DNA of 64,000 nt from Escherichia coli (GTDB lineage Bacteria > Pseudomonadota > Gammaproteobacteria > Enterobacterales > Enterobacteriaceae). The notes below the pieces were generated by a model, which did no database searches, was not told the DNA's origin, and saw nothing but the letters and a program-made list of their open reading frames with translations. Made by a program: the position numbers and the translations under genes. Position 1 is the first letter of the stretch. Every line of letters starts with the position of its first letter. The DNA is taken from the NCBI RefSeq assembly GCF_003334385.1, contig NZ_QOWN01000012.1; one strand, written 5' to 3'. Shown here piece after piece: positions 55,493 to 59,049 of this stretch.

Positions 55493-55582
55493 CGTCATCT
55501 TCTCTATAAAAAAGAGCGTGGATTGGGTACAATCCCGCTCTTATCACCGCATTTTGACTAGCTCAATAAAAGAAATCAGACC

Positions 55583-56690: not shown

Positions 56691-58208
56691 ATGTCTGAAC
56701 AACACGCACAGGGCGCTGACGCGGTAGTCGATCTTAACAATGAACTGAAAACGCGTCGTGAGAAGCTGGCGAACCTGCGCGAGCAGGGGATTGCCTTCCC
56801 GAACGATTTCCGTCGCGATCATACCTCTGACCAATTGCACGCAGAATTCGACGGCAAAGAGAACGAAGAACTGGAAGCGCTGAACATCGAAGTCGCCGTT
56901 GCTGGCCGCATGATGACCCGTCGTATTATGGGTAAAGCGTCTTTCGTTACCCTGCAGGACGTTGGCGGTCGCATTCAGCTGTACGTTGCCCGTGACGATC
57001 TCCCGGAAGGCGTTTATAACGAGCAGTTCAAAAAATGGGACCTCGGCGACATCCTCGGCGCGAAAGGTAAGCTGTTCAAAACCAAAACCGGCGAACTGTC
57101 TATCCACTGCACCGAGTTGCGTCTGCTGACCAAAGCACTGCGTCCGCTGCCGGATAAATTCCACGGCTTGCAGGATCAGGAAGCGCGCTATCGTCAGCGT
57201 TATCTCGATCTCATCTCCAACGATGAATCCCGCAACACCTTTAAAGTGCGCTCGCAGATCCTCTCTGGTATTCGCCAGTTCATGGTGAACCGCGGCTTTA
57301 TGGAAGTTGAAACGCCGATGATGCAGGTGATCCCTGGCGGTGCCGCTGCGCGTCCGTTTATCACCCACCATAACGCGCTGGATCTCGACATGTACCTGCG
57401 TATCGCGCCGGAACTGTACCTCAAGCGTCTGGTGGTTGGTGGCTTCGAGCGTGTATTCGAAATCAACCGTAACTTCCGTAACGAAGGTATTTCCGTACGT
57501 CATAACCCAGAGTTCACCATGATGGAACTCTACATGGCTTACGCAGATTACAAAGATCTGATCGAGCTGACCGAATCGCTGTTCCGTACTCTGGCACAGG
57601 ATATTCTCGGTAAGACGGAAGTGACCTACGGCGACGTGACGCTGGACTTCGGTAAACCGTTCGAAAAACTGACCATGCGTGAAGCGATCAAGAAATATCG
57701 CCCGGAAACCGACATGGCGGATCTGGACAACTTCGACTCTGCGAAAGCAATTGCTGAATCTATCGGCATCCACGTTGAGAAGAGCTGGGGTCTGGGCCGT
57801 ATCGTTACCGAGATCTTCGAAGAAGTGGCAGAAGCACATCTGATTCAGCCGACCTTCATTACTGAATATCCGGCAGAAGTTTCTCCGCTGGCGCGTCGTA
57901 ACGACGTTAACCCGGAAATCACAGACCGCTTTGAGTTCTTCATTGGTGGTCGTGAAATCGGTAACGGCTTTAGCGAGCTGAATGACGCGGAAGATCAGGC
58001 GCAACGCTTCCTGGATCAGGTTGCCGCGAAAGACGCAGGTGACGACGAAGCGATGTTCTACGATGAAGATTACGTCACCGCACTGGAACATGGCTTACCG
58101 CCGACAGCAGGTCTGGGAATTGGTATCGACCGTATGGTAATGCTGTTCACCAACAGCCATACCATCCGCGACGTTATTCTGTTCCCGGCGATGCGTCCGG
58201 TAAAATAA
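56691..58208 (+). CDS. lysS: lysyl-tRNA synthetase (constitutive)
   Basis: 505-aa [36 protein letters not shown]... Confidence 0.95.
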
Positions 58209-58226
58209 GCATTACGTTATGCTCAC

Positions 58227-58255
58227 AACCCCGGCAAATGTCGGGGTTTTTTTAT
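58227..58255. terminator. shared terminator for convergent lysS and idi
   Basis: ccccg gcaaatgt cgggg followed by ttttttt on the plus strand and preceded by an A-rich tract; overlaps the idi stop codon. Confidence 0.5.
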
Positions 58256-58800
58256 TTAAGCTGGGTAAATGCAGATAATCGTTTTCTGGCTTCGCGATTT
58301 GTCGCCTGCATCACCATCCACGGACTGAACGCCCACGGCGTGGCATCAATACCGTGTAATACATCTGCTAAATCACACCATTGATAATCCATCACTTCAT
58401 CATCATTGATCTGTAACGCACTAGTGGTGCGTGCGGCAAATACCGGACACACTTCATTTTCCACAATGCCACTCGGATCGGTGGCGCGGTAGCGAAAGTC
58501 AGGATAGATAGATTCAGGAGGCGTAATTTCCACGCCAAGCTCATAACGGCAACGGCGGATCACTGCGTCTTCGTTGCTTTCTCCCAGTTGTGGGTGCCCA
58601 CAAACCGAGTTAGTCCACACGCCAGGCCATGCTTTTTTGCTCAGTGCGCGGCGGGTAACTAATAATTGTCCTTTGGCATTAAACAGCCAACTGGAGAACG
58701 CGAGATGTAAGCGGGTGTCTGCCGTGTGTGCGGCATACTTTTCCAGCGTACCCGTGGGAACTCCCTGTGCATTCAATAAAATGACGTGTTCCGTTTGCAT
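58252..58800 (-). CDS. idi: isopentenyl-diphosphate delta-isomerase (type 1, Nudix)
   Basis: 182-aa [44 protein letters not shown]... Confidence 0.9.
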
Positions 58801-59049
58801 AATTTCTCACATGTAATTCTGATCACTCATCATTATAGATAATTGAAGAGTGAAATGATTAACCAAGTGAGCGTTTATCGACAACCGCCCGTTTTGAGCG
58901 GATGCCGACAGGTAAAAACCATTTAAAAAAGTAGCATCATATATTTGAAGCGACTTTCAATGGCCATTGCAACACAGTCAGAAATGACAGGAATAGAGAG
59001 AGTAAAAAGCAACAACAGACTGAATATAGCGCGCATTAAAAAATTCATA

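Follow-up and report, generated by a model that had tools for sequence, protein, structure and literature searches.

Junction of the convergent genes lysS and idi, in a 64,000-nucleotide stretch of Escherichia coli DNA (the window). lysS (lysine--tRNA ligase, 56691..58208, plus strand) is present in the ORF list with 100% identity to MG1655 b2890, is the final gene of the prfB-lysS operon and ends with the stop codon TAA at 58206-58208. idi (isopentenyl-diphosphate Delta-isomerase, 58252..58800, minus strand) converges with it and was assigned from the ORF list and genome matches. The spacer is 43 nt in length (58209-58251). The order on the plus strand is TAA GCATTACGTTATGCTCAC AACCCCGGC AAAT GTCGGGGTT TTTTTATTTAAGCTG. 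The junction sequence in the window (lysS plus, idi minus) is base-for-base the same as in E. coli K-12 MG1655, and MG1655 coordinates are obtained as 3,091,865 minus the window position. A 301-nt junction query matched all 5,426 complete E. coli genomes, with a median of one place per genome and with lysS/idi annotation among the matches listed.

Divergence between K-12-type and O103-type idi (E. coli O103:H2 12009) is concentrated at window 58255-58303, the last 52 nt of the gene, where 17 of the 25 differences lie. It is about 33% in these 52 nt and about 1.6% in the remaining idi; 0 of 200 nt differ upstream of idi and 8 of 709 nt in lysS. Six of the last 16 residues are different (...QLK* versus ...QHN*), and the divergent patch stops exactly at the T-tract of the lysS terminator. 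Of all allele groups in the 5,426 genomes, the O103-type one (90-95% identity across the 301-nt query) has the most members. The patch resembles a short tract imported by recombination, or else a relaxed tail at the C-terminus. On the far side of idi, the idi-uacT spacer (58801-59066) holds the tiny annotated ORFs yqfH and yqfG (MG1655 b4753 and b4684); a 47-aa minus-strand ORF at 58923-59066 is the yqfG frame with an alternative start upstream. These ORFs are relevant to the question of a separate idi promoter as against read-through from uacT.

The prfB-lysS terminator hairpin, AACCCCGGC-AAAU-GUCGGGGUU, occupies 58227..58248 on the plus strand and begins 18–20 nt past the lysS stop. The inverted repeat (arms AACCCCGGC and GTCGGGGTT, loop AAAT) was found with two independent tools, and the hairpin was characterized further by folding, scoring and comparison of alleles and genera. 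Its core is CCCCGGC-AAAU-GUCGGGG, the G/C core being 58229-58246 with a G58234.U58241 wobble. Folded as lysS RNA it forms a 9-bp stem (6 G-C, one G.U) with a 4-nt loop, -14.8 kcal/mol, z = -4.8; none of 200 shuffles was equally stable. Directly past the hairpin stands T7-A-T3-AA (58247-58259). The U-tract proper, T7 A T3, is 58247..58257 and also complements the last codon and the TAA stop of idi. The stop codon lies at 58252-58254 (TTA on the plus strand), embedded in the tract; the last codon AAA (58255-58257) is the source of the distal TTT. About 6 bp of sequence therefore serve two purposes, and the lysS and idi transcripts are mutually complementary over the hairpin. An earlier note on this DNA, made from the sequence alone, had named the two genes as convergent and had described a GC hairpin followed by a T-run with the idi TAA inside it; the ORF list, the MG1655 identity, the fold and the coordinates bear this out.

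Terminator scores (d) are of the d'Aubenton-Carafa type, with ViennaRNA energies and an approximate zero threshold, and were computed on G/C-closed hairpin cores. The lysS terminator, d = +57, has the highest score on either strand of the 64-kb window. Eight candidates with d of at least 25 were found on both strands of the window versus 0.5 expected, and the best d in 40 dinucleotide-preserving shuffles of the window was 41.6, below +57. All three features, hairpin, T-run and stop-codon overlap, are real and non-random. REP/BIME or another repeat origin was considered for the hairpin and rejected; it is single-copy, unique in the window and found at one place per genome. Membership of a known RNA family was likewise rejected, Rfam returning for the hairpin sub-threshold, terminator-like sRNA matches only.

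Published 3' ends agree with the hairpin and its U-tract. SMRT-Cappable-seq gives a full-length b2891|b2890 transcript from a TSS at 3,036,324 to a TTS at 3,033,612, window 58253; this TTS carried the label "novelTTS", no terminator being annotated then (PMC6131387). TRS, based on Term-seq and RNAtag-seq, locates the lysS terminus, very strong and classed "Primary", at 3,033,609-3,033,611 (window 58254-58256), gives a 47-nt lysS 3' UTR and draws the same hairpin (PMC10687069). The two maps together span 58253-58256, inside the idi stop and last codon, so that the lysS 3' UTR of about 47 nt reaches the idi stop. The ends are 7–10 nt past G58246 and within the U-tract, at or beside the 7–9 nt past the stem expected of an intrinsic terminator. 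In the lysS direction the element is a GC-rich stem-loop followed by U7AU3, a canonical intrinsic terminator of prfB-lysS with predicted Rho-independence. It is already known and represents no new kind of element. The end of the prfB-lysS transcript at this terminator is experimentally settled by the published 3'-end maps.

Other ends and palindromes of the operon are as follows. An ORF-internal lysS 3' end was reported by Adams et al. 2021 at MG1655 3,034,626 (-), 548 nt into the gene, window about 57239 (+). The recJ-prfB spacer contains a strong palindrome, A6-GAGCGTGGATTGGGTACAATCCCGCTC, at window 55512-55549. Its T6 run is on the minus strand of the window (d = 32), on which no converging gene is annotated. 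On the recJ-sense strand the tail is poor in U, yet 3' termini have been published just past the palindrome on that strand (MG1655 3,036,316-319). The prfB-lysS TSS, window 55541, falls in the 3' arm of this palindrome, and TACAAT in its loop is the likely -10 element of prfB-lysS.

The lysS region was taken from 80 species genomes for comparison. A lysS-direction terminator with d of at least 25 is present in 57 of 74 prfB-linked Enterobacterales/Aeromonas loci, mostly starting 17–22 nt past the lysS stop, irrespective of whether idi follows; the hairpin is therefore foremost the operon's own terminator. Convergent idi occurs in Escherichia, Citrobacter, Pseudocitrobacter, Superficieibacter, Phytobacter, Kluyvera, several Enterobacter and Pluralibacter gergoviae. 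Its stop codon lies 2–4 nt past the G/C core and inside the T-tract in 10 loci besides K-12; therefore the dual-use arrangement is old and conserved. The consensus of an 18-sequence alignment is AAAAAA-GCCCCGGCG...CGTCGGGGC-TTTTTTTT. RNAalifold recovered the stem from this alignment, and 6 of 10 pairs show compensatory changes. Among E. coli alleles the stem is invariant and the loop alone varies (AAAT, AGAT, AACC). The structure is thus conserved as befits an intrinsic terminator of lysS.

A symmetric A-tract/hairpin/T-tract occupies the orthologous junction in Enterobacter, Pluralibacter and Kluyvera. Upstream A-tracts are A7 in Enterobacter cloacae (whose junction reads A7-hairpin-T6), A7 in a soil MAG, AAAAGCAAAAA in Kluyvera, A5 in Pluralibacter and clear in Phytobacter; the loci that carry such a tract are L010, L014, L015, L024, L026, L061 and L066. 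Reverse scores (d-) of the A-tract orthologues range from +10 to +67, and from +42 to +67 in E. cloacae, Pluralibacter gergoviae, Kluyvera and others with A5-A7 upstream. The fewest upstream A's in the idi-adjacent set are found in E. coli and E. albertii; read from this comparison, Escherichia is the lineage that has lost the tract. A-tracts also aid forward termination. Neither A-tracts nor reverse scores were enriched where the next gene is convergent versus co-directional (Mann-Whitney p = 0.68 and 0.47, n = 17 and 23, crude ORF calls), and the A-tracts of the orthologues are therefore not proof of selection for two-way termination.

Several junctions are rearranged. In E. albertii NBRC 107761 (L006:4018-4227) two copies of the hairpin sequence CCCCGGCAATCGTCGGGGTT form a 20-nt direct repeat, and between them lies an insert of about 165 bp with REP-like palindromes. 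The lysS-proximal copy is without a T-tract (d+ = 11); the idi-proximal copy retains TTTTTTATTTA and the idi stop. The arrangement looks like an insertion into the terminator with target duplication. Citrobacter werkmanii (L009:4018-4104) and C. youngae (L012:4018-4115) have REP-like palindromes (GCCGGATGGCGGCTGATGCCTTATCCGGC...) in the lysS-idi spacer and no hairpin-plus-T-tract terminator in either direction, d+ being about -16 to -19. In E. coli FDAARGOS_944 (L005, about 1645 onward) IS4 lies inside the 3' arm of the terminator hairpin; the sequence diverges after ...CCCCGGCAAATGTCG, lysS is without its native terminator, and idi was not found in the 1.5 kb downstream of lysS.

In the idi direction the E. 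coli element is different. The 9 nt that precede the G/C core, TGCTCACAA, contain 3 A and no A-tract; the sole A's adjoining the stem are the two paired with the first two T's. The opposite strand past the stem reads UUGUGAGCA, not a U-tract, and the tail of the idi RNA past the hairpin is UUGUGAGC / UUGUGAGCAU. The G58234.U58241 wobble becomes an A.C mismatch on idi RNA, where the hairpin has 7 bp, an 8-nt loop and -10.9 kcal/mol (-8.3 for the G/C core alone). The idi-strand score of the main hairpin is d = -12, sub-threshold, and a consensus terminator scan found the plus-strand site only, with no minus-strand site at the junction. The main stem starts about 4 nt past the idi UAA. Ribosomes repress a terminator almost completely when it stands a few bp past a stop codon, and it attains full strength only at a distance of more than about 30 bp (Li et al., PMC4824070); an upstream A-tract is described as the essential feature of bidirectional terminators (PMC12207403). 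To judge by these features, the E. coli terminator is strand-asymmetric and looks built for the lysS direction only.

Two further features lie on the idi-sense strand past the hairpin. The first is a small AU-rich palindrome, GCATTACGTTATGC, at 58209..58226 (listed on the plus strand, from folds and allele comparison), which makes up the first part of the lysS 3' UTR and forms a 4–5 bp hairpin on lysS RNA. Its counterpart on idi RNA (58226..58205) is a stem of 8 bp, rich in G.U, with UUUAC behind it overlapping the lysS stop. This stem has 2 G-C pairs only, a core of -1.7 kcal/mol and d = -29; stacked in tandem on idi RNA, the two hairpins reach -19.5 kcal/mol, z = -4.4. The function of the palindrome is doubtful because it is altered in E. 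albertii; it is absent in other genera. The second is a candidate Rho-utilisation region at 57940..58140 (minus strand), proposed from composition, in which the idi-sense (antisense-lysS) RNA has more C than G: 78-nt windows contain C 28–35% and G 19–26%, C/G up to 1.69, at 100–300 nt past the idi stop. It could serve as a Rho-utilisation region for idi transcripts that read through.

No idi 3' end or idi-containing transcript is present among the entries listed in Adams 2021, TRS 2023 and Yan 2018. The sole entry listed at the locus by Adams 2021 is the lysS-internal end; TRS 2023 has lysS ends only among its entries listed; Yan 2018 has no b2889/b2888 transcript among the entries listed. The TERMITe 2025 supplements gave no match for an idi end, and a full-text literature search for a lysS/idi or lysS/prfB terminator gave nothing relevant. 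Since expression of idi is probably poor, the missing idi 3' end counts only as absence of evidence.

The claim of a bidirectional terminator is thus only partly supported for E. coli: its lysS half stands on the published ends, and its idi half is not supported by the sequence, given the missing A-tract, the weaker hairpin, the sub-threshold score and the proximity of the stop codon. Mapping of 3' ends on both strands, proposed with the claim as its check, shows in the published data a lysS end, and no idi end among the entries listed. The A-rich run said to flank the hairpin on its other side is not there. Nor does it follow that idi has essentially no 3' UTR, since action of the hairpin on idi RNA needs a 3' UTR of at least 26 nt. 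To go by the sequences compared, the description fits the ancestral or sister-genus junction better than that of Escherichia.

The preferred explanation, which we hold to be probable, is a one-way canonical lysS terminator, with idi transcripts released otherwise than by efficient intrinsic termination and with sequence shared with the idi stop. On lysS RNA the 9-bp GC-rich hairpin is followed by U7AU3, and polymerase releases the transcript in the U-tract, as the 3'-end maps show. Intrinsic release of idi transcripts would be inefficient because of the A.C mismatch, the lack of a U-tract and a stem that, about 4 nt past the stop, would fall inside the footprint of the terminating ribosome. 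On idi RNA the hairpin would most likely act as a pause site and as a barrier to 3' exonucleases. Release may then be due to idi polymerases meeting the denser lysS traffic head-on, to Rho, or to both; Rho would act on the untranslated antisense-lysS RNA downstream of the hairpin, and the released idi RNA would be trimmed back as far as the stem-loop. The routes proposed do not exclude one another: weak pausing or termination at the hairpin; collision with lysS polymerases at a point set by the hairpin, as in the model of Ju et al. and Wang et al.; and Rho with 3'-exonuclease trimming. In E. coli mRNAs terminated by Rho, the steady-state 3' ends are marked by stable stem-loops that lack a U-tract (Dar & Sorek, PMC6061677). 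The poor idi-strand score does not exclude function, because many in vivo bidirectional sites do not resemble intrinsic terminators (bioRxiv 10.1101/2022.10.23.513370).

Next to the preferred explanation, the best of the alternatives is an overlapping bidirectional terminator of the collision type described by Ju et al. 2019 and Wang et al., in which the hairpin only pauses polymerase and head-on and trailing collisions of lysS and idi polymerases release both transcripts; it is held to be unlikely, although less so than those that follow. The genes are convergent with a hairpin-encoding overlap, the idi side is unlike an intrinsic terminator, as described for the class (bioRxiv 10.1101/2022.10.23.513370), and lysS, with its strong termini, is well expressed, so opposing traffic is supplied. 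The lysS side, however, is a textbook strong intrinsic terminator for which collisions are unneeded, and idi is apparently too weakly transcribed for detection, whereas efficiency in the model rises with the expression of both partners (same source).

That the single hairpin is an efficient intrinsic terminator of both convergent transcripts is rated improbable. Both RNAs of the convergent pair can fold at the palindrome (-14.8 and -10.9 kcal/mol), a spacer of just 43 nt offers no other element, and the orthologous lysS-idi junctions with d- of +42 to +67 are symmetric. Bidirectional terminators are common between convergent E. coli genes: an earlier sequence-based study, as cited in bioRxiv 10.64898/2026.03.23.713779, called about 306, and the preprint counts about 704 convergent pairs. 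The E. coli junction, however, has no A-tract to give an opposite U-tract (TGCTCACAA upstream, UUGUGAGC as the tail), a negative reverse score and no match in the minus-strand scan; its hairpin begins almost at the idi stop, and none of the three data sets has an idi 3' end among the entries listed.

A further reading is speculative and is offered at long odds. The asymmetry would be functional and Escherichia-specific, loss of the A-tract with retention of the G.U wobble making a one-way gate and leaving idi 3'-end formation dependent on prfB-lysS traffic or on Rho. If so, idi polymerases would read into antisense lysS, and the idi mRNA level would be tied to that traffic or to Rho. A non-essential isoprenoid gene would then be coupled to expression of a translation-machinery operon, and ribosome occupancy at the idi stop would additionally gate folding of the hairpin.

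The weakest alternative, two back-to-back one-way terminators with idi ended by the AU-rich hairpin (58226..58205) and a U-run, UUAUUUUAC, that overlaps the lysS stop and mirrors the lysS/idi-stop overlap, draws on the tandem stacking of the two hairpins, on the position of the AU-rich hairpin outside the ribosome footprint and before the sole U-rich stretch of that strand, and on the invariance of GCATTACGTTATGC in five E. coli alleles, but is very improbable given a stem with so few G-C pairs and so low a score, its disruption in E. albertii, its absence from other genera and a substitution in strain 115 that breaks one pair.

Beyond annotation the result matters little: prfB-lysS is confirmed as an operon with a strong intrinsic terminator at its end. 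The lysS U-tract is under dual constraint, as a termination signal of lysS and as stop and last codon of idi, an arrangement kept in several enterobacterial genera. Before a palindrome between convergent genes is called bidirectional, it should be checked for an A-tract, G.U wobbles and distance to the stop codon. For chromosomal overexpression of idi in metabolic engineering, the arrangement suggests possible read-through antisense to the essential lysS.

Compared with symmetric bidirectional intrinsic terminators, the junction shares a short convergent spacer and a fold on both RNAs, and its orthologues have that architecture; the E. coli and E. albertii copies differ in the absence of an A-tract, a reverse hairpin weakened by G.U and a sub-threshold reverse score. 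The SEnd-seq tables of Ju et al. 2019 reportedly list bidirectional and overlapping TTS sites. With collision sites (Ju, Li & Liu 2019; ynaJ-uspE, bioRxiv 10.1101/2022.10.23.513370) the junction shares a convergent gene pair, a potential pausing hairpin and an idi side that does not look intrinsic. The ynaJ-uspE model site is weak alone in either direction (bioRxiv 10.1101/2022.10.23.513370), whereas at this junction termination of lysS is strong and of the classical kind. As in protective 3' stem-loops (Dar & Sorek 2018, PMC6061677), the idi RNA has a stable stem-loop without U's and a C-rich, G-poor stretch downstream; unlike them, its hairpin is near enough to the stop codon for occlusion by ribosomes. 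REP/BIME elements (bioRxiv 10.64898/2026.03.23.713779) are likewise extragenic palindromes common to two 3' UTRs, and REP-like elements occupy the same junction in Citrobacter werkmanii and C. youngae and are inserted in E. albertii. The E. coli hairpin differs from them, being single-copy, having a U-tract and not being a REP. With canonical E. coli intrinsic terminators (lambda tR2, trpA) it shares a GC-rich stem of 7–9 bp, a tetraloop, 7–8 U directly 3' of the stem, an RNA end in the U-tract, a position about 20 nt past the operon's last stop and a covarying structure. No essential difference from these was found, other than that the distal U-tract of lysS doubles as the stop and last codon of idi.
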